Of a DNA stretch of 64,000 nt, positions 1 through 10,295 are shown piece by piece. Every line of letters starts with the position of its first letter. Positions within the stretch are counted from its first letter, which is position 1. The notes under the pieces were generated by a model. The model had not been told where the DNA came from. It searched no databases and saw nothing but the letters and a program-made list of their open reading frames with translations. The translations under genes were made by a program, and so were the position numbers. The stretch comes from an uncultured cyanobacterium (GTDB taxonomy: Bacteria > Cyanobacteriota > Cyanobacteriia > Cyanobacteriales > CAWCAG01), in assembly GCA_963803805.1 (NCBI GenBank), contig CAWDOD010000010.1, positions 416,001-480,000 on the forward strand. The letters run 5' to 3'.

Positions 1-89
1 TAATATTAATAATATTGGAGTTCACTATCATGTTCCTCTATTAGTTTCTCCTTGGTCTTATAGTACCTATCGAGGAAGCTGATTAAATA

Positions 90-596
90 ATGAAGGAAAA
101 GCAATACACAATTGCCAACTTAAATCAGATGTCTCAGGAGGAGTTTACGGCTGCTTTAGGAGATATTTGGGAAGACACACCAGAAATTGCTAAACAATCA
201 TGGCAAAAGAAACCCTTTGCCAATTTAGAAGATTTGTATCAAGAGATGGTGGCAGTTGTTGATAATATGTCTGACGAAAAAAAGTTAGCCCTCATTCAAG
301 CCCATCCAGATTTAGGAAGTAAGGCAAAGATGGCAGAAGCTTCAGTCCAAGAACAAGCTGGAGTAGGTTTAGACCGTTTATCAGAGTCAGAATATGAGCA
401 TTTTTTAGAACTCAACCAAGCTTATCAAAATAAGTTTGGTTTTCCTTTTATAGTGGCAGTTAAATACCATACTAAAGAGAGTATTTTAGCGGACTTTGAA
501 ACTCGTTTAGAAAACAACCAAGAGCAAGAAAAAAAACAGGCTTTAAAAGAAATTACTAAGATTGCACGACTACGTTTAGAGTCAATGGTGAGCTAA
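90..596 (+). CDS. uraD: OHCU decarboxylase (uric acid degradation)
   Basis: Motifs LIQAHPDLG, S..EQAGVGL, LNQAYQNKFGFPFIVAV, EITKIARLRL; 168 aa, the expected size. Confidence 0.93.
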   Translation: MKEKQYTIANLNQMSQEEFTAALGDIWEDTPEIAKQSWQKKPFANLEDLYQEMVAVVDNMSDEKKLALIQAHPDLGSKAKMAEASVQEQAGVGLDRLSESEYEHFLELNQAYQNKFGFPFIVAVKYHTKESILADFETRLENNQEQEKKQALKEITKIARLRLESMVS

Positions 597-664
597 TTAG
601 CTAGATTTAAAATGCCTGTTTAGTTTGTCTTTGATTACTATATATTCTTGACTTCAAGCCTAAT

Positions 665-679
665 TGTATACTGTATACA
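665..679. promoter_or_regulatory. Palindromic operator candidate TGTATAC-T-GTATACA upstream of the porin
   Basis: Perfect 7-1-7 palindrome about 70 bp before the porin ATG; the same 13-bp core recurs at 5018-5030. Confidence 0.7.
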
Positions 680-748
680 GCAATACTTTTCTAACTAGTT
701 AAAAATGCTAATTTTACTGATGAGAATTAGTTGGTGTGAGAGGGAAAA

Positions 749-2581
749 ATGAGTATCAAAGAAACTTTAAACAGGTTTTATCTTACCAAAAAAAGAATTA
801 AGTTGATTAATAAATTAAGTTTGTTACTTTTTCCTTTAACCTTATTATCTACGACTACAATTAAAACCCTAGCCTCAGAAGAAATAGTTAACTCCTCCAG
901 ACTAGAAAGTGCTAACACTTTTGAAAAAATAAATAGCCTTGATGACTCCGATTGGATGTCTCAAGTTACTAACGTAAACCAGTTACGAGATGTATCTCCT
1001 AGAGACTGGGCTTATGAAGCATTACGTTCTTTAGTAGAGGGTTATGGTTGTATCACAGGATTTCCTGACCAAACCTATAGAGGAAACCAACCCTTATCTC
1101 GTTACGAATTTGCTGCGGGTTTAAGTTCTTGTCTTGACAAAATAGAACAACTAACTTTTTCTGAAGGAGTTACTCAGGAAGATTTAGAAAAAATGCAACG
1201 CCTCAGCCAAGAATTTGAGGCAGAACTCGCCATTATTTCTGAGAGAATAGATGACTTAGAAGCGCGTACTAACTTTTTAGAAGAGAATCAGTTTTCGACC
1301 ACAACTAAACTATCTGGTGACATCTTTTTTAACCTAACAGGTGCGGGTGCAGGAGATAATGTTTCTGTCGAAACTAGCTCTCTTAATGCTCCTTTTGCTT
1401 TGCGTCGGGCAGGCAGAGATACTAATAATAACCCCTTAGTTAGTACGGTTACTAATGATCCTGCAACTACTCTGAGCTATTATGCCTGGATTAACTTAAA
1501 TTCTTCTTTCACAGGAAGAGACAACTTAGCTGTTCAGTTAGTAGCAGGTAACGGAATTTCTCCTGTCAATAGCTTTGTTTCCGCCGGACTTTTTAATACC
1601 TTTGGTACTCCTTTTTTAGATCAAACGGGTACATCAAGTGGGGCAGGTAGTGTAGAAATTCGGGAACTATTTTATGATTTTCCTGTCGGAGAAAAACTGC
1701 GGGTAGTAGTTGGACCAAGAATTAATTGGTATCGCTATTTTGATAATAATCGCTATACTTTTTTCCTCACAGGGGCAAGTAGCTTTAACGCTATTGGTGG
1801 TACTTTAGTTAACCCCATTGATCGTGGTTCAGGGGCTGTAGCAACTTATAAAGCTAATGATTGGCTGACTTTTAAATTAGGCTACCTGGGAGAAAATACA
1901 GAGTTTTTACCTGCCCCTTTCTTTAATACCTCTTCTGATCCTAGCAAAGGTTTATTTAGTGGTACACAAACCTTAACTGCTGAAGTAGATTTAGCGATCG
2001 CAGATCAAGCCAACCTTCGCTTAATATACACCAGAGGAACTTTAGACAACAATCAACCCCTTTTTGATACCAATGGCAATCTCACTGGTTTTGGTGTTGG
2101 TGGCGCTACAGGAGAGCCTATCTATGGAGTAGCAGACGATGGTTTTGGTGGTACAATTGGTGATGCTCCCAGTGATACTTTTGCTGTTAACTTTGATTGG
2201 GCAATTACAGAAAGATTCGGCGTTTTTGGGCGATATAACTACGGTAGCACCGACATTTCTCCTCAAAATACTACCAGAAGCTCAGGAGAAGTTAATGCTC
2301 AAGCCTTTCAAGGTGGAGTTGCCTTCCCCGACTTAGGTAAAGAAGGTGCGTTAGGAACTCTTTCTTTTGTGATTCCTTTTGATGTTCTTGATGGAGAAGA
2401 ATTTCTTGCTTCTGGTAATGGTGATGGAGGCACTCAGTATGAGTTTGAAGCTACTTATTTTTATCCAGTTAATCGTAATTTAGCAATTGTTCCGGCCTTT
2501 TATTTCATTGCTAATCCTAACAACTTTGAGAGTAATCCCAGTATTTTTGTGGGTAATTTGCGAATGCAATTTAGGTTTTAA
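749..2581 (+). CDS. Cyanobacterial outer-membrane porin (SLH domain + OprB-type barrel)
   Basis: SQVTNVNQLRDVSPRDWAYEAL SLH start, coiled coil, QFSTTTKL barrel start, C-terminal LRMQFRF. Confidence 0.92.
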   Translation: MSIKETLNRFYLTKKRIKLINKLSLLLFPLTLLSTTTIKTLASEEIVNSSRLESANTFEKINSLDDSDWMSQVTNVNQLRDVSPRDWAYEALRSLVEGYGCITGFPDQTYRGNQPLSRYEFAAGLSSCLDKIEQLTFSEGVTQEDLEKMQRLSQEFEAELAIISERIDDLEARTNFLEENQFSTTTKLSGDIFFNLTGAGAGDNVSVETSSLNAPFALRRAGRDTNNNPLVSTVTNDPATTLSYYAWINLNSSFTGRDNLAVQLVAGNGISPVNSFVSAGLFNTFGTPFLDQTGTSSGAGSVEIRELFYDFPVGEKLRVVVGPRINWYRYFDNNRYTFFLTGASSFNAIGGTLVNPIDRGSGAVATYKANDWLTFKLGYLGENTEFLPAPFFNTSSDPSKGLFSGTQTLTAEVDLAIADQANLRLIYTRGTLDNNQPLFDTNGNLTGFGVGGATGEPIYGVADDGFGGTIGDAPSDTFAVNFDWAITERFGVFGRYNYGSTDISPQNTTRSSGEVNAQAFQGGVAFPDLGKEGALGTLSFVIPFDVLDGEEFLASGNGDGGTQYEFEATYFYPVNRNLAIVPAFYFIANPNNFESNPSIFVGNLRMQFRF

Positions 2582-2625
2582 TTAAACTAAGCCTTGTTAT
2601 ATTTCTACCCTACTCCTTGCCATAG

Positions 2626-3861
2626 ATGAAATTATCAACAACAACTCAATTACTCGTAAATAGCGATCGCCTCAATCAAAGCATTGCCCGTTTAGCACAA
2701 ATTGGTCAACTACCTAACGGTGGTGTAAAACGTATTGCCTATAGCAAAGAAGATAGAGAAGCCCGTAACCTAATCAGGCACTGGATGGAAGAATCTCAGA
2801 TGCAGGTAAGGATTGATGCAGGGGGTAATATCATTGGCAGATATCCAGGTAAGCATCTTGATGCACCTGCGATCGCAACAGGTTCTCATATTGACACCGT
2901 CCCTTGTGGAGGACATTACGACGGTGCTTATGGAGTATTAGCAGGATTAGAAGTTGTAAGAATTCTCCAAGAAAATCAGCTTAGGCTAGATCCCCCCTTA
3001 GAAGTAATTGTCTTTACCGATGAAGAAGGTAGCATGATTGGTTCTAAAGCTATTTCTGGTAGAGTAATCAAAGACTCAAATTATTATCGTCGCTCTGATG
3101 GTACAGATATTGCCACTTGTTTAGAGAAAGTTGGCGGTAACTGGCATAACATTACTCAAGCCCGTCTCAATCCCCAAGATATCGCTATCTTTGTCGAACT
3201 TCATGTCGAACAAGGGCCTGTACTAGAGTCTATGGGTAAACAAATTGGCGTAGTTGAAGGTATTGTCGGACAAAGAAGATTTGATATTACCGTCAAAGGT
3301 AGCGCCAATCATGCTGGGACAACCCCGATGCAGATGCGTTGTGACGCTTTAGTGGCTGCTTCTCAGGTGGTTTTAGCTGTTAATCAAATTGCTAACAGCC
3401 CTGGACAACAGGTAGCTACAGTAGGGAAAATGGCAGTTTTGCCCAATGCAGCTAATGTTGTTCCTGGTTGGGTAGAAATGAGTTTAGATATTCGTGATTT
3501 ATCTAGCTTACATATAAATAATTTGCTCGAACAGTTACGCCTTCATTTAGAAGAAATTGCTGTTACTACCAATACTCAAATTAGATTGATACCCTGTTTA
3601 GACAACGAACCAGTTTTAGCTGAGCCTTATATCCAAAAGGCGATTGCCCTTAGTTGTGAAAGCCTTAACTTAAGCTATACTCACCTACCCAGTCGTGCTA
3701 GTCATGATGCCCAAGAATTGGCTCAAATTACTGACATGGGAATGATTTTTGTTCCTAGCAAAATGGGAGTCTCCCACGATGCCAGTGAATATACCTCTCC
3801 AGAACAATGTACCCAAGGTGCGAATGTTTTGTTGCAAACATTAATTCACTTAGGTGGTTGA
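2626..3861 (+). CDS. M20-family Zn hydrolase, allantoate amidohydrolase / N-carbamoyl-L-amino-acid hydrolase
   Basis: GSHIDTV, DGAYGV, DEEG, ELHVEQG, NHAGTTPM, HDA motifs; same strand as uraD. Confidence 0.85.
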   Translation: MKLSTTTQLLVNSDRLNQSIARLAQIGQLPNGGVKRIAYSKEDREARNLIRHWMEESQMQVRIDAGGNIIGRYPGKHLDAPAIATGSHIDTVPCGGHYDGAYGVLAGLEVVRILQENQLRLDPPLEVIVFTDEEGSMIGSKAISGRVIKDSNYYRRSDGTDIATCLEKVGGNWHNITQARLNPQDIAIFVELHVEQGPVLESMGKQIGVVEGIVGQRRFDITVKGSANHAGTTPMQMRCDALVAASQVVLAVNQIANSPGQQVATVGKMAVLPNAANVVPGWVEMSLDIRDLSSLHINNLLEQLRLHLEEIAVTTNTQIRLIPCLDNEPVLAEPYIQKAIALSCESLNLSYTHLPSRASHDAQELAQITDMGMIFVPSKMGVSHDASEYTSPEQCTQGANVLLQTLIHLGG

Positions 3862-4257
3862 TTGCTTTTGTTTATACATTGCCCAACCGCCCAGATTGGA
3901 AATATCGGGCCAGTTGTGTTTTTCGATTAATTCTTGAGGATAAAGCATGGCGATTGCTTGTTCTCCTCCTTCTAAATCCACCGTATCAGGATACATATGG
4001 GGAGGCTCATTTACCAAGAGATATTCGTACTCTTCCGTTGTCATTTCATAAATTTCCCCAGGAATGCTTACTCCCCCTGTTTCTACAGCATAAATTGCCG
4101 GATGCCAGCCATTTTCTGCGGCATGGAGGCGATATTTAGGAAGGGTTTTTGCTGCCTTAATGAACTTTGCAGACTGGAGATTTTGATGGTCTGGCTGACC
4201 TTTTAAAGCTGAACCACAGATAAAAACTTGCTTGATGCTTGATTCTGTTATTGTCAT
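3850..4257 (-). CDS. Gamma-glutamylcyclotransferase-fold protein resembling the allophanate hydrolase C-terminal domain
   Basis: FICGSALKG, KYRLHA, GGVSIPGEIYEM, DISNLGGW; ATG at 4257 preferred over the longer ORF that overlaps gntR. Confidence 0.75.
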   Translation of the reverse strand: MTITESSIKQVFICGSALKGQPDHQNLQSAKFIKAAKTLPKYRLHAAENGWHPAIYAVETGGVSIPGEIYEMTTEEYEYLLVNEPPHMYPDTVDLEGGEQAIAMLYPQELIEKHNWPDISNLGGWAMYKQKQSTT

Positions 4258-4273
4258 GAATTCATCTAGATAT

Positions 4274-4960
4274 TTAAGAGATGCCAATATTATTAATAAT
4301 TTCCAGTTCCTGCACTACTCTGACTTTACTAGCTATTAAATGTTCTGTAATCGTTTCTTGAGCAAAATTTGCATCTCCACCGGCGATCGCTTCATAAATT
4401 TGTCTATGTTCAAGACGAATTTCTAATACTTGGGGGTTATGTTTGGTGGTTTGTATTCTTAACAATGCCATTTTGTCAAAAACTTGTTCTAACAAAGTTA
4501 ATAGCCATTGATTACCAGAACTTTCTGCAATTAAATGATGAAATTGATAGTCTATTTCTAGTAGTTGAAGGGTATTAGATTTATCCTGCTGAGACTCTAG
4601 CAACTTCTCTGCCAAAAGTACGCATTTTTCTAATTTTTTTAGTTGTTTGGAGGTGATTTGTTCGCAAGCATCCGCAGCAGAAAGTTTCTCTAAAGCCATA
4701 CGACAATCATAAAGTTGTATGGCATCCTGAACAGAAAGGGTAGCGACCCTAAAACCGCCATTAGGGTTAGATACTATTAATTTTTCTCGTTGCAGTTGAC
4801 CGATTGCTTCACGAATGGGGGTGCGGCTAACCTGTAATTGTTCGGCTAATTTCGTTTCTACTACTCTTTCTCCTGAAGCTAAATCTCCTTTAAGAATAAT
4901 TTTTCTCAAAGCTTGATATACTTGTTGCCGTAAAGATTGACTTCTTTGAATAGCGAGCAT
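4274..4960 (-). CDS. GntR (FadR/FCD subfamily) transcriptional regulator
   Basis: wHTH LAEQLQVSRTPIREA; FCD motifs D..FHHLIAESSGN and EHRQI. Confidence 0.95.
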   Translation of the reverse strand: MLAIQRSQSLRQQVYQALRKIILKGDLASGERVVETKLAEQLQVSRTPIREAIGQLQREKLIVSNPNGGFRVATLSVQDAIQLYDCRMALEKLSAADACEQITSKQLKKLEKCVLLAEKLLESQQDKSNTLQLLEIDYQFHHLIAESSGNQWLLTLLEQVFDKMALLRIQTTKHNPQVLEIRLEHRQIYEAIAGGDANFAQETITEHLIASKVRVVQELEIINNIGIS

Positions 4961-5017
4961 AACCTGAGTTTTTACTTGGGAAAGACTATTAAATGGTTAA
5001 GTGTTTTTATCCTTTGA

Positions 5018-5030
5018 GTATACAGTATAC
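5018..5030. promoter_or_regulatory. Operator candidate GTATAC-A-GTATAC upstream of gntR
   Basis: Exact reverse complement of the 666-678 core; about 58 bp upstream of the gntR start; overlaps -10-like TATACT on the minus strand. Confidence 0.7.
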
Positions 5031-5531
5031 GAGACACGAGGAACAAACAATTTTAAAACTCAATTTCCACCGAATCTCCCGAAGTATCATCATTAGAATG
5101 CCCTAACTATAGCTTAGGGATGAGGTGAAGTGTTTTTTCTTTATACATACTGACAGTTGTACTTAAAAAAGTAATCTGCTAGGGTGGAATTTCAGACTAA
5201 AATCTTCCCCTTTATACACAAAATCACAAAAGAAACAGCATTACTTCCAATTACTTATCTGTAAACCTCAATAGCCCTACATATTGGTATAAATAAATGT
5301 TAAGTACCAAATCCAGACAGAATGGTCAATGTAGCTCTCAACGACTCAACTAATCTGGGCAATTTCAATCAATTAAGGCTATCATTGCCACATATTTGTG
5401 CTTCTATATTGAGTTTAAGAAACTGTCAGTTTACGTTTATTATCATCAGGCATCAGCAGTAGCATCTCAGTTTCAGATATTTATAGGATCTAAAGAATCC
5501 CGAAATTCTAGGTTAGAGTTCGTAGGCAAGA

Positions 5532-8500
5532 GTGTATCGGTGTATAGGTGAGATGCTCCAACAAGCAATATTAAGCATTAATACGCTCAAATCCCCAGAG
5601 CGAAAAGAGAGTGCTACCGTACAAGTAGGTATTTTGCACTCCTTAAGTGGCACTTTGGCTTTCAGAGAAACTTCTCTTGTAGAAGCGGAACTGATGGCCA
5701 TAGAAGAGATTAATGCTACAGGAGGGGTACTGGGCAAAATAATTGAGCCAGTTGTTGCTGATGGAGCTTCTGACCCCACTGAATTTGAGCAACTGGCTAA
5801 AGAACTAATTCAAGAGTGTGGTATCAACAATATTTTTGGTTGCTATAGTTCCTCAATTCGTAAAGCTGTCTTACCAATCTTTGAAGAATTGAATGCCCAA
5901 CTTTGGTATCCGGCTCAATATGAAGGGCTAGAATCTTCTAAAAATATTTTTTATACAGGTTCTTGCCCCAACCAACAAGCTGAACCTGGAGTTAATTGGT
6001 TATTGAGTAATGGTAACAAGAAGTTTTACTTAGTCGGTACAGAGGATATTTTTTCCCACGTAGCTCACAAACTGATTAAACAACAGCTTGAACAAGCAGG
6101 AATAGTTGTTGGTGAAGTCTATATGCCTGAAGGCATTGAAAATTTTAGACCTATTTTAGGTAACATTCGACAAATTCAACCTGATGTTATCATTAATACC
6201 CTTAATGAAGCCAGCAATCTTCTGTTTTATAGACAGTATCGAGAGTTAGATTTTCCTGGTGATACTATCGTCATGGCCCTTCGTTTAAGCGAAGTAGAAT
6301 TGCAAGAGATTGGCAAAGATGCCCAAGGAACTTATGCCACTCGCAGCTATTTTCAAAATCTTGATACCCCACGCAACCAAGATTTTATTAGGAATTTTCA
6401 AAATCGCTACGGTAAAAAGCGAGTTATCAACGAAGCTATCGAAACAGCCTATACCCAAGTTTATCTATGGAAACAAGCAGTAGAATTAGCCCAATCATTT
6501 GATTTAGAAAGATTGCGGGTAGCTGTGTATGGAGAAACTTTTAAAGCTCCTAACGGGTTAGTACAACTTGAACCCAACCACCATATTTGGAAACCCTATC
6601 GTATTGCTCAAGTCTTACCCACAGGAAACTTTAGCATCATTCATACTGCTCCTCAACCAGCTAAGCCTCTACCTTGGCTCAGTTTAGGAGAAAATAGTCC
6701 TCACCACTCTGAGGTAGTTACTGGTTTACTTTCAGAAGTTTCTTTGTGGATTCAAAGAGCCAAAGACTTACAAAAAAAATCTTCAGATTTACAGAGCAAT
6801 ATGGCCCAGCTACAAAGGGAAATGGCTCAAACTCAGAGAATTTCAACTCCCTTACCAGAATCTGAAGCTGAACTACAGAGCCTCTTTGAGGCGATGACAA
6901 AACTAATTTTGGTAATTAACAACCAGGGACGCTATCTCAAAATCGCCCCCAACCATAGCGATCTTTCCTACCAAGATGGTAGTCAATTGTTGGGTAAAAC
7001 CCTAGATGAAGTCTTTGACCGTAACCAAGCTGACACTTTTTTAGGTTATATCCAAGAAGCCTTGGAAAGCCAAGAAACTGTTCATTTTGAATATTGCCTC
7101 ACCATTAGAGAAGAGCAATTTTGGTTAGCCGGGAGCCTTTCCCCGATTTCCACAGATTCTGTACTTTGGGTGGCTAGGGACATTAGCCAACAGAAACAAG
7201 AAGAAGAGAATCTTAAACAAGCCAAAATAGAATTAGAAGAGAAAGTTGCTGAGCGTACTGCTGCCTTAAAAGAATCCAATGATCGCTTAGTAGGCGAGGT
7301 TGTCGAACGAACTCAAGCAGAAAAAGAATTAAGGGCCGCTAGAGATCAACTCCAGGCAGTATTAGAAGCAGTGCCTGGAATAGTTTCTCGTATTAGTGAT
7401 GACCTGCACTACCTAGAGGTTAATAGCCATCTAGCAGATATGTTTGAGCTACCCAGAGGAGCCTTTGTCGGCCAAGATATTGGTTTTCTCAATAGTAGCT
7501 CCGAATTCAACGACTTTGTTCGCCAATTTTTTGCGAAAAAAGACATTCAAGATGAATATAAAGAGATATCTGCCATTGTTAAAGGTGAAAAACGTAAGTT
7601 TTTACTAGTAGCTCAAAAATACGACGAAAACCGAGCAACTTTCATTGTTGGTATTGATATTACCAAACGTCATCAGGCAGAACAAGAACTTCTAGAAGCG
7701 AAAGAGCAAATGGAAACGGTGTTAGAAGCTGTACCAGGGATTGTTTCTCGCATCAGCCATGACCTAAGTTACTTAGAAGTTAATAGCCATCTAGCAGAGA
7801 TGTTTGAGCTGCCTAGAGAAGACTTTGTGGGTAAAGATATTGGTTTTCTTAATAGTAGTTCCGAATTTAAAGAATTTGTCCGGCAATTCTTTGCCAAAAA
7901 AGAAGCTCAAGACGAATACACAGAGGTATCTGCCACCTTCAAAGGGGTGGAGAAAAGACTGTTGTTAGTAGCTAGGAAATATAATCATAACCAAGCAACT
8001 TTTATTGTCGGCATTGATATTACTCAACGCCACCGGGTAGAAGAGCAACTTGTAGATGCAAAAGGTCAAATGGAAGCGGTGCTAGAAGCCGTACCAGGAA
8101 TTGTTTCTCGTATTAGCAAAGACCTGAACTACTTAGAAGTTAACCGCCATTTAGCAGAAACGTTTAACTTGCCAAGAGAAGCTTTTGTGGGTCAGAATAT
8201 TGGCTTTCTCAATAGTAGCTCGGAATTTAATACTTTTGTCCGCAAATTTTTTGCTGATAATACGATTCAAGATGCTTTCCGTGAAGTATCAGCTAAGGTT
8301 AACGGTATTGAGCGCAAGTATCTAATTGTTGCTCAAAAATATGATCACAACAAAGCCGCATTTACTATTGGTATTGATATTACTGAACGCCAACAAGCAG
8401 AAGAACGCCTGCGCCAAGCAGAAGCTAAATATCGTAACATTTTTGAAAATGCCGTAGAAGGAATTTTTCAAACAACTCCAGAAGGATACTTTATTAGCGC

Positions 8501-10295
8501 TAATCCTGCCCTAGCACGCATTTACGGTTATGATTCTCCAGAAGATTTAATTATCAACCTGGGGAGTATTGGTGATAATCTCTACGTTGAACCAGGAACT
8601 AGAGCAGAATTTATCCGCAGACTCAATCAGTATGGTTCGGTAGTCGGTTTTGAAGCTCAAGTTTATCGCCGCGACGGCACTTTAACTTGGATTTCTGAAA
8701 ATGCCCGTACCGTTTGTGATGAAGAAGGTAATCTCCTTTTTTACGAAGGTACAGTAGAAGATATAGCCGAACGCAAAGAAGCTCAAGAAGCTCTACAAAG
8801 AGCAAACGAACAGTTAGAAACTAGAGTCGAAGAACGTACTGCTGCTTTAAGAGACTCCAACCGTCAGTTGCTCATTGAAGTTAGTGAACGCCAAAAAGTA
8901 GAAGCGGAATTGCGGGCTTTATTTGCTGCCATGACAGATGTGATTGCGGTGTTTGATGCTCAAGGACGTTATCTTAAAATTGTTTCTACTAATTCAGAAC
9001 TTTTGTACAATCCTTCAACGGAGAGAATTGGCAAGACGGTTTATGAAGTTTTGCCTTCTAGTCAAGCAAAACTGTTTGTCAGTCATATTCAACGGGCCCT
9101 CAACACGGGACAAACAGTTAATTTAGAATACAACTTGCCGGTGACTCCAAATGGTAAAGATGCTCCGATGCAAGAAATGTGGTATGCAGCAAATGTTTCC
9201 CCTATGCCAGATAATTGCGCTATTTGGGTGGCCAGAGATATAACAGAACGCAAGTATGCAGAAAAAGCTTTAGAAAAAGCCGAAGAAAAGTATCGCAGTA
9301 TCTTTGAAAATGCGGCTGAGGGGATTTTCCAAATTGCTCCTGACGGTCGTCATATAAGTGCTAATCCGGCTTTAATTAATATGTATGGTTATCTTTCCTT
9401 AAGAGACTTAATTGGCAGCTTACCTAATGTCAACGAACAACTCTATGTAAACAGGGAACGCCGTCAAGAATTTCTGCGACTTTTGGAACGGGATGAGTTA
9501 GTATCCAACTTTGAATCGCAAATTTATCGTAAAGATGGTAGTATCATCTGGATTTCTGAAAATACTAGGGTAGTACGAGATGAAGTTGGTAAGTTGCTTT
9601 ACTACGAAGGTACAGCCACAGATATTACTAAGCGTAAAGAAGCAGAGGAAGCTTTGCGAGAAGAACAGGCTCGTTCAGAACGCCTCTTACTAAACATTTT
9701 GCCCAAAACCATTGCTGAGCAACTCAAACATTACGAAGGTTCTTTAGCAGAAAGATTTGATGAAGCAACGGTTCTTTTCGCAGATATTGTTGAGTTTACC
9801 CCTATTTCTGCTGATGTTGCCCCGTTAGAATTAGTTAGCACTCTTAATCAAATTTTCTCTTGCTTTGATCAACTGGCCGAAGAGCTTGGTTTAGAAAAAA
9901 TCAAAACTATTGGTGATGCTTATATGGTAGCAGGGGGGTTGCCTGTTCCTAGAGCAGACCATGTTGAAGCGATCGCTGATATAGCCCTAGCTATGCAAAA
10001 AGAAATTGGTCGTTTCAAACAAGAAAATGGTAAACCATTCCGCCTCCGCATCGGTATTAATACAGGACCAGTAGTCGCAGGAGTAATTGGTATTAAGAAA
10101 TTTATCTACGACTTGTGGGGGGATACAGTTAATGTTGCTAGCAGAATGGAATCCCAAGGAGCCGAAGGAGAAATTCAAGTTACCGAAGCTACTTACAAAC
10201 GGTTGCAGGAAAACTATTTATTTATCCATCGAGGTAAAGTGAATATTAAAGGAAAAGGAGATATGAAAACCTATTGGTTAAAGGGAAGAAAATAA
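5532..10295 (+). CDS. Class III adenylate cyclase with N-terminal UrtA/AmiC-type binding domain and seven PAS domains
   Basis: N-term VGILHSLSGT..E, DGASDP, QYEGLE, PNQQ; PAS/PAC units; C-term FADIVEFT, KIKTIGDAYM, YDLWGDTVNVASRMES. Start codon uncertain. Confidence 0.9.
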   Translation: MYRCIGEMLQQAILSINTLKSPERKESATVQVGILHSLSGTLAFRETSLVEAELMAIEEINATGGVLGKIIEPVVADGASDPTEFEQLAKELIQECGINNIFGCYSSSIRKAVLPIFEELNAQLWYPAQYEGLESSKNIFYTGSCPNQQAEPGVNWLLSNGNKKFYLVGTEDIFSHVAHKLIKQQLEQAGIVVGEVYMPEGIENFRPILGNIRQIQPDVIINTLNEASNLLFYRQYRELDFPGDTIVMALRLSEVELQEIGKDAQGTYATRSYFQNLDTPRNQDFIRNFQNRYGKKRVINEAIETAYTQVYLWKQAVELAQSFDLERLRVAVYGETFKAPNGLVQLEPNHHIWKPYRIAQVLPTGNFSIIHTAPQPAKPLPWLSLGENSPHHSEVVTGLLSEVSLWIQRAKDLQKKSSDLQSNMAQLQREMAQTQRISTPLPESEAELQSLFEAMTKLILVINNQGRYLKIAPNHSDLSYQDGSQLLGKTLDEVFDRNQADTFLGYIQEALESQETVHFEYCLTIREEQFWLAGSLSPISTDSVLWVARDISQQKQEEENLKQAKIELEEKVAERTAALKESNDRLVGEVVERTQAEKELRAARDQLQAVLEAVPGIVSRISDDLHYLEVNSHLADMFELPRGAFVGQDIGFLNSSSEFNDFVRQFFAKKDIQDEYKEISAIVKGEKRKFLLVAQKYDENRATFIVGIDITKRHQAEQELLEAKEQMETVLEAVPGIVSRISHDLSYLEVNSHLAEMFELPREDFVGKDIGFLNSSSEFKEFVRQFFAKKEAQDEYTEVSATFKGVEKRLLLVARKYNHNQATFIVGIDITQRHRVEEQLVDAKGQMEAVLEAVPGIVSRISKDLNYLEVNRHLAETFNLPREAFVGQNIGFLNSSSEFNTFVRKFFADNTIQDAFREVSAKVNGIERKYLIVAQKYDHNKAAFTIGIDITERQQAEERLRQAEAKYRNIFENAVEGIFQTTPEGYFISANPALARIYGYDSPEDLIINLGSIGDNLYVEPGTRAEFIRRLNQYGSVVGFEAQVYRRDGTLTWISENARTVCDEEGNLLFYEGTVEDIAERKEAQEALQRANEQLETRVEERTAALRDSNRQLLIEVSERQKVEAELRALFAAMTDVIAVFDAQGRYLKIVSTNSELLYNPSTERIGKTVYEVLPSSQAKLFVSHIQRALNTGQTVNLEYNLPVTPNGKDAPMQEMWYAANVSPMPDNCAIWVARDITERKYAEKALEKAEEKYRSIFENAAEGIFQIAPDGRHISANPALINMYGYLSLRDLIGSLPNVNEQLYVNRERRQEFLRLLERDELVSNFESQIYRKDGSIIWISENTRVVRDEVGKLLYYEGTATDITKRKEAEEALREEQARSERLLLNILPKTIAEQLKHYEGSLAERFDEATVLFADIVEFTPISADVAPLELVSTLNQIFSCFDQLAEELGLEKIKTIGDAYMVAGGLPVPRADHVEAIADIALAMQKEIGRFKQENGKPFRLRIGINTGPVVAGVIGIKKFIYDLWGDTVNVASRMESQGAEGEIQVTEATYKRLQENYLFIHRGKVNIKGKGDMKTYWLKGRK
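7362..8441 (+). repeat. Intragenic triplication of a 360-bp PAS unit
   Basis: LEAVPGIVSRIS...GFLNSSSEF...GIDIT units start at 7362, 7722 and 8082. Confidence 0.9.

Follow-up and report, generated by a model that had tools for sequence, protein, structure and literature searches.

A predicted soluble adenylate cyclase with an altered UrtA-type sensor, and a putative family of cytoplasmic urea-sensing enzymes in cyanobacteria

Introduction

Does a protein that joins the fold of a urea receptor to an adenylate cyclase, and that is encoded beside genes of purine catabolism, couple nitrogen metabolites to cAMP? The question is raised by a gene for a 1587-aa protein in the window, the 64,000-nucleotide stretch of DNA from an uncultured cyanobacterium (genome G000) that was analysed here. 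The initial annotation proposed that intracellular urea, amide or ureide levels control cAMP synthesis through this protein and took it as a candidate for an undescribed system. In the portions of the literature consulted, the usual account of cyanobacterial nitrogen sensing is built on 2-oxoglutarate, PII and NtcA. Solute-binding folds are already known as cytoplasmic sensors (AmiC), and on cyclases they are familiar from receptor guanylyl cyclases.

Results

A UrtA-derived domain, seven PAS domains and a class IIIa cyclase in one chain

The gene and the domains of its product are as follows; pocket positions are numbered here and throughout as in Prochlorococcus UrtA.

5532..10295, + strand: sensor-PAS7-adenylate cyclase gene, soluble product of 1587 aa; GTG start, alternative ATG at 5553
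5613..6686, + strand: UrtA-derived type I solute-binding domain without export signal; W120Y (5844), Y190D (6045), S274R (6282)
6876..9629, + strand: seven PAS domains with predicted coiled linkers between them; boundaries approximate
9675..10292, + strand: presumed helical transducer element (SERLLLNILP) and class IIIa adenylate cyclase domain; six of six catalytic and substrate residues

The ortholog P0002 has Met at the position of the GTG start, and the closest labelled relative among the matches listed is a Spirulinaceae protein fragment (89%). In good agreement with the architecture first read from the sequence, namely a UrtA/AmiC-type sensor, seven PAS domains and an intact cyclase, we found Pfam matches to Peripla_BP_5 (E 3e-122), PAS families and Guanylate_cyc (E 3e-65), seven PAS C-terminal motifs (residues 548, 707, 827, 947, 1076, 1234 and 1362) and solved relatives of the sensor. 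Self-matches reveal PAS2-4 as tandem repeats of 120 aa, with PAS1 resembling PAS6 and PAS5 resembling PAS7; PAS2-4 returned no solved relative at E 0.01 and only generic PAS clusters in the Atlas. In run X4 one contig lacks 360 bases (7409-7770), the exact length of one PAS repeat, which reflects either PAS copy-number variation or assembly collapse.

All six cyclase residues (D1418, K1458, D1462, D1527, N1534 and R1538) are present. The Guanylate_cyc domain with the metal-binding Asp pair D1418/D1462, N1534 and R1538 assigns the protein to class IIIa, and K1458 and D1527, aligned to AC9 C2, form the ATP-selecting pair that had been noted at the outset. Class IIIa adenylate cyclases have Lys and Asp at the substrate positions, not Thr/Ser and not Glu/Cys. 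Judged by its sequence, the 1587-aa protein is thus a soluble class IIIa adenylate cyclase with an intact active site. The same catalytic domain, the preceding helical element, which we take to be a transducer, and the Lys/Asp pair are found in the mycobacterial class IIIa cyclases 4P2F, 5O5K and 7YZ9 and in mammalian AC5/8/9. These relatives are anchored in the membrane, whereas the 1587-aa protein is soluble and carries a solute-binding domain and seven PAS domains. Arthrospira CyaG, a class IIIa cyclase with the same type of catalytic domain, is likewise membrane-anchored. Receptor guanylyl cyclases such as NPR-A also combine a type I solute-binding fold with a class III cyclase in one chain; there, however, the binding domain is extracellular and recognises peptides, a transmembrane helix and a kinase-like domain follow, and the substrate is GTP, and the likeness is an analogy, not whole-protein kinship.

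The sensor domain has the UrtA fold and an altered pocket

The best solved relatives of the sensor domain are the urea-binding protein 8TG1 (E 2e-105) and the UrtA structures 8HIC, 7S6E and 7S6F (~1e-86), followed by AmiC 1PEA (3e-46). Its AlphaFold model (pLDDT 92.7) superimposes on 8TG1 with a Z score of 48.7 and an rmsd of 2.9 Å over 357 residues; the rmsd to closed 8TG1 is 2.9 Å for the sensor domain versus 2.4 Å for a control that has an intact pocket and was modelled from the same alignment rows. Across the UrtA structures (8HIC, 7S6E, 7S6F, 8TG1) the common fold gives Z 47-49, with 42-47% identity and six of nine pocket residues shared. The UrtA profile TIGR03407 scores the domain at 391.3 bits, below its curated cut-off of 492.75, and in a tree rooted on the genome's UrtA the fused sensor domains branch within UrtA-like sequences. 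UrtA itself is exported as the lipoprotein component of an ABC transporter, whereas the sensor domain lacks an export signal, is fused to a cyclase and carries W120Y, Y190D and S274R. Nor is the cyclase gene encoded with urtBCDE; urtABCDE, with its own urtA, lies on contig C2.

The reported lack of a signal peptide, lipobox and transmembrane helix holds up. Only ~25 polar residues precede the sensor fold, and no lipobox occurs in the first 45 residues, where the genome's own UrtA has one. The highest 19-residue hydropathy is 1.34, but the same crude scale gives the UrtA signal only 1.25, and the argument against export therefore rests on the short polar N-terminus and the missing lipobox. The domain is under purifying selection (dN/dS 0.107 against the ortholog in G001, a 98% complete genome of a sister species of the same genus).

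In the part of the source available to us, the urea pocket of UrtA consists of W120, S122, Y141, Q144, E146, Y190, F192, N246 and S274 (PMC10392092). According to the same part, mutation of S122, Q144, Y190 or N246 strongly reduces or abolishes urea binding and W120A abolishes it, although the mutants assayed were alanines and not the residues found in the 1587-aa protein (PMC10392092). The latter keeps S122, Y141, Q144, E146, F192 and N246 (6/9), whereas W120Y, Y190D and S274R (its residues 105, 172 and 251) alter the remainder, including two of the five most binding-critical positions. Three motifs flagged initially as differing from UrtA (GCYSSSIRK, TEDIF and TLAFRE) differ from both the genome's own and the solved UrtAs. 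Since W120Y and Y190D fall on critical residues and S274 has become Arg, the protein probably does not bind urea; and since AmiC, too, has Tyr at position 190, binding of amides is likewise in doubt. On sequence grounds, the 1587-aa copy is a poor candidate for urea or amide sensing, as residues needed for both appear to have been removed. The altered pocket had been read as a hint of another ligand; the alteration is real, and the switch of ligand is retained only as a rival reading (see Discussion).

The comparison with AmiC of Pseudomonas aeruginosa (1PEA, 1QO0), a cytoplasmic sensor of the same fold with 29% identity to the sensor domain, is two-sided. AmiC has Tyr at the W120-equivalent position, as does the 1587-aa protein; overall, the two are identical at four of the nine pocket positions and different at five. 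The equivalents of Tyr150 and Thr233 (AmiC numbering) are Asp and Arg in the sensor domain. Unlike the 1587-aa sensor, which is fused to a cyclase, AmiC has no enzyme output and acts as a protein of its own, in complex with the antiterminator AmiR (PDB 1QO0 title). An amidase and an ANTAR regulator accompany the stand-alone AmiC; neither family was detected among the eight neighbours scanned near the cyclase gene.

W120Y, Y190D and S274R are shared by the G001 ortholog and P0122, whereas P0002 shares D190 and R274 and differs at two further positions (W120N, N246D). All four close relatives, from three distinct lineages and with domain identities down to 81%, thus keep D190 and R274. The pocket tree (FastTree, UrtA-anchored columns, 186 of 296 rows) places the protein in a subclade (support 0.96) whose five lineages carry five different pocket changes.

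The purine cluster is a neighbour by insertion

The surroundings of the gene comprise the following elements.

1..5030: right half of a 9.9-kb purine/ureide island (OHCU decarboxylase, porin, amidohydrolase, AH_C protein, gntR)
5039..5106, + strand: right copy of a 45-bp imperfect direct repeat, displaced 3' end of a UvrD-like gene; right edge of the island
673-686 and 5018-5030, and G000:C10:412152 and 413117: candidate GntR operator GTATACAG, in four intergenic island regions

As first described, the cyclase gene is divergent from the gntR of the purine cluster (4274-4960, - strand), at a distance of 571 bp. Upstream of the window the cluster continues with a polysaccharide-deacetylase-fold gene (which we take to be the PuuE allantoinase), EamA, NCS2 permease, FAD monooxygenase and HIUase genes, after which comes the OHCU decarboxylase. 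The repeat proper spans 5039-5083, with the open frame continuing to a stop at 5106; the left copy, outside the window at G000:C10:411096-411140, lies inside the UvrD-like gene. The two copies agree at 39/45 positions, and the open frame to 5106 matches the end of the G001 UvrD-like gene at 61 of 68 bases. The UvrD-like gene of G000 (G000:C10:406862-411175) encodes a 1437-aa protein with weak UvrD helicase matches (E 3e-7), and its 3' end is the insertion site.

In G001 the cyclase ortholog (93% identical over 1587 aa, same pocket residues) directly follows the 1437-aa UvrD-like gene, whereas in G000 the cluster separates the two genes. An OHCU decarboxylase is missing from G001, and island DNA finds no match there beyond pieces of 69-104 bases at the boundary and in the porin. 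The 430 bp upstream of the cyclase are common to this island-free genome, and dN/dS over the whole cyclase is 0.087 between the two. The cyclase, with the same pocket, thus persists under purifying selection without the purine pathway. Contigs in three of four public runs also join across the island; since these runs come from one study and may be of the G001 organism, they corroborate the empty site without adding independent lineages. Three more distant UvrD-like homologs end at about the G001 position, which makes gain of the island in G000 likelier than its loss in G001. The caveat attached to the initial proposal, that the adjacency could be coincidental, was well placed: the cluster is an island between 45-bp repeats, a neighbour by insertion and unrelated to the signalling unit.

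The exact 12-mer of the candidate GntR operator occurs three times in the genome, always inside the island; the gntR regulon therefore looks island-internal, and the candidate at 5018-5030 most likely serves gntR autoregulation. Upstream of the cyclase gene we found no NtcA box (15 matches in the window vs 10.7 expected), and a sigma-70 scan returned 2 sites vs 2.5 expected.

Several further observations concern this region. The island NCS2 permease (G000:C10:413175-414568) is split by a frame change near 413520, either a true break or an assembly error. An SLH/OprB-type porin (749-2581), possibly for purine uptake, lies within the cluster, and DNA matches suggest that G005 and G016 likewise have porins within or close to their clusters. 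A stand-alone allophanate hydrolase C-terminal domain protein (3850-4287, - strand), also in the cluster, overlaps the end of gntR. Beyond the island, recent recombination between the two species probably accounts for the segment 9732-10746: the 3' end of the cyclase has 99-100% DNA identity to G001, the next ORF has 99% protein identity, and dS is 0.03 at the cyclase 3' end vs ~0.6 in the 5' part.

Purine genes do not accompany other fusions

We surveyed 54 loci from 45 other genomes, namely the long open frames among the matches listed (319 further matches lie outside this set), with at least 5 kb on both sides for 44 of 55 domains; nine loci encode cyclase fusions. At E 1e-8, tblastn gave no match at the 54 loci to any of eight purine-cluster proteins (enzymes, permease pieces and regulator), and neither urtB, urtC nor ureG was found nearby. 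No neighbour gene that would hint at a ligand recurs at these loci. The initial annotation had staked its proposal on a recurring linkage to nitrogen catabolism; purine linkage was seen at 0/54 loci. Together with the sister species, which keeps the cyclase without the island, this leaves the proposed link between the cyclase and the ureide pathway without support. A separate related-locus search gave 80 loci, nearly all non-cyanobacterial and UrtA-like, which were left out of the counts.

Among the matches listed, an OHCU decarboxylase is encoded elsewhere in 29/45 fusion-bearing genomes and somewhere in 5/7 other genomes with a cyclase fusion. Urease is present in 45/45 fusion-bearing genomes (among the matches listed) vs 129/151 in a class-wide sample, an excess that is suggestive only, kin and genome size being uncontrolled.

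UrtA-type domains occur on several kinds of signalling enzyme

G000 itself holds four copies of the UrtA fold: the 1587-aa cyclase, two further fusions and the true urtA, which belongs to a genome with urease and urtABCDE.

G000:C4:149935-152580, - strand: 881-aa paralog; UrtA-like domain with 9/9 pocket residues, two PAS domains, class IIIa cyclase; also in G001
G000:C2:1108007-1110772, + strand: 921-aa protein; UrtA-like domain with 9/9 pocket residues and histidine kinase

Going by sequence, the 881-aa paralog is the strongest candidate for a cyclase truly gated by urea, and it would make a better test case than the 1587-aa copy. The middle domain of the 921-aa kinase looks GAF-like by eye, and its gene lies directly downstream of a response regulator gene.

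The sensor-domain search took in the best 120 of 497 matches in proteins of 869-2765 aa and the best 120 of 6441 shorter ones. The family as counted here combines these top-ranked matches with the genome loci and is not a census; two locus domains below threshold have no row in it. Among the matches listed, fusion partners are adenylate cyclases (at least 97 rows), histidine kinases (at least 73), PP2C phosphatases (at least 23), GGDEF (at least 6) and GGDEF-EAL (at least 1), with 28 rows partial or other. A lipobox or transmembrane-like stretch was found in none of the database fusions listed (0/89 cyclase, 0/46 kinase, 0/11 PP2C and 0/5 GGDEF); of the stand-alone proteins among the matches listed, 44/68 have a lipobox. 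Catalytic motifs are kept in 96/97 of the cyclase fusions listed.

Mapped via the genome's own UrtA, the pocket is complete (9/9) in 65/68 stand-alone rows among the matches listed; invariant UrtA sites were defined after dropping four rows judged to be truncated fusions, including the three exceptions. Once rows that share a pocket and 90% identity are collapsed, a full 9/9 pocket remains, among the matches listed, in 18/19 PP2C, 4/5 GGDEF, 36/53 kinase and 34/71 cyclase fusions (46/97 cyclase fusions before deduplication). Pocket conservation among the matches listed is 0.99 for PP2C, 0.98 for GGDEF, 0.95 for kinases and 0.86 for cyclases; at other UrtA-invariant sites the fusions score 0.81-0.83 (for cyclases, 0.86 in the pocket vs 0.83). 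A pocket conserved above other invariant sites in the non-cyclase fusions implies extra selection and argues for real urea binding, whereas the cyclase pocket, hardly above the other sites, suggests relaxed constraint; about half of the cyclase fusions appear to have drifted there. The commonest pocket loss in cyclase fusions is that of Y190, kept by 62% of those listed. Several independent cyclase lineages have an acid at position 190, in three cases together with a base elsewhere in the pocket. We considered charge-pair covariation and rejected it: counted by eye, ~3 lineages have acid and base, ~6 acid only and 3 base only, for which general decay suffices.

Six proteins (P0003, P0004, P0005, P0006, P0007 and P0009) have at least two UrtA-like domains; some have Ser/Thr kinase domains, and one comes from a eukaryote transcriptome set. 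L152 (G222:C35) encodes an 860-aa protein with a UrtA domain at its C-terminus and, by eye, a caspase-like N-terminus; the UrtA domain groups with true UrtAs in the tree.

Discussion

Our tentative preference, held a little short of even confidence, is that the 1587-aa sensor is most likely a ligand-blind folded module that has lost urea and short-amide binding, with cAMP set by the PAS array or partners. W120 and Y190 are among the five binding-critical residues of UrtA (PMC10392092, as far as available), and Y190 is Tyr in AmiC as well; at the same time the domain is retained as a confidently modelled, selectively constrained fold (dN/dS, pLDDT and Z as above). The varied pocket changes in its subclade, the relaxed constraint across cyclases, the intact 881-aa paralog that could do the sensing in both sister genomes and the absence of the island from the sister species fit this loss of binding. 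It has to contend with the six pocket residues that remain, with an intact site as the family default in 46/97 cyclase fusions listed, with the use of alanine, not Tyr, Asp or Arg, in the UrtA mutants (PMC10392092, in the part seen), and with the retention of D190 and R274 in four close sequences, which fits a new specificity too. That alternative, a pocket that now takes a different small ligand outside purine catabolism, such as a charged or zwitterionic nitrogen compound read by Asp and Arg and controlling cAMP, seems to us rather unlikely. The conservation of D190 and R274 over three lineages down to 81% domain identity and the recurrent acid at 190, three times with a base in the pocket, would suit it, yet W120N and N246D in P0002 indicate that the site is not fixed even among orthologs, acid and base occur apart about as often as together by our tree count by eye, and no recurring neighbour at the 54 loci suggests a ligand.

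We consider it distinctly improbable that urea or a short amide is still sensed with lower affinity, the protein supplementing the intact paralog when concentrations are higher. For this speak the kept residues S122, Y141, Q144, E146, F192 and N246, the Tyr that AmiC also has at the W120 position, and a genome with urease and urtABCDE; against it, Asp replaces a Tyr that in UrtA contacts the carbonyl oxygen (PMC10392092, as far as available) and that AmiC also has, and Arg replaces a pocket-lining Ser. Sensing of a ureide (allantoin or allantoate) jointly with the adjacent purine cluster is largely refuted and scarcely credible: the divergent gntR 571 bp away, the candidate GntR operator ~500 bp upstream of the start and the OHCU decarboxylase in 5/7 other cyclase-fusion genomes listed are outweighed by G001 (98% complete), which has the same pocket residues and neither an OHCU decarboxylase nor island DNA, by contigs in 3/4 runs that join across the island, by 0/54 other loci with purine genes and by the 430 bp upstream of the cyclase in common with the island-free genome.

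Under the ligand-blind reading, a homodimeric cyclase would be built along a coiled-coil/PAS spine. Where a family member has kept its pocket intact, binding of urea would bring the two lobes together, and the spine would relay this closure to the output domain; in the 1587-aa copy, the new Arg and Asp may fill the urea site, and cAMP output would then depend on the expanded PAS array or on partners. A urea-mimicking role of the Arg guanidinium at this site is speculation.

Taken together, the sequences point to a putative family of cytoplasmic urea-sensing enzymes in cyanobacteria. We regard it as an evenly balanced proposition that the UrtA receptor was co-opted as a module for sensing urea in the cytoplasm, attached to at least five kinds of signalling enzyme (adenylate cyclase, histidine kinase, PP2C, GGDEF and GGDEF-EAL) and providing a direct urea-to-cAMP route, and that cyclase pockets diversified repeatedly, the 1587-aa copy being a retuned or self-plugged variant. 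Of the original idea that urea, amides or ureides control cAMP, urea signalling thus remains plausible at the level of the family, the ureide link finds no support, and the 1587-aa copy itself is a poor urea or amide candidate. The suggestion of an undescribed system fares similarly: the ureide system as framed falls, and for the fusion we found no description of UrtA-fold domains joined to cyclases, kinases or phosphatases in the literature searched, mostly papers available without subscription. The accessible parts of PMC8050422, PMC2853384, PMC1262709, PMC10443332, PMC9953108 and PMC8547431 make no mention of UrtA-fold fusions. The architecture is visible in automatic annotation (P0106), and databases mislabel the fusion proteins as 'urea ABC transporter substrate-binding protein'.

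The 1587-aa gene carries a caution, in that a persuasive neighbour can be a recent island. The worthwhile lead is the fusion family behind it and not the ureide system; since the pocket is structurally known, a urea-sensing family would be easy to test. If such one-component enzymes read urea directly, they would provide a separate nitrogen input, relevant to urea-fed blooms and mats.
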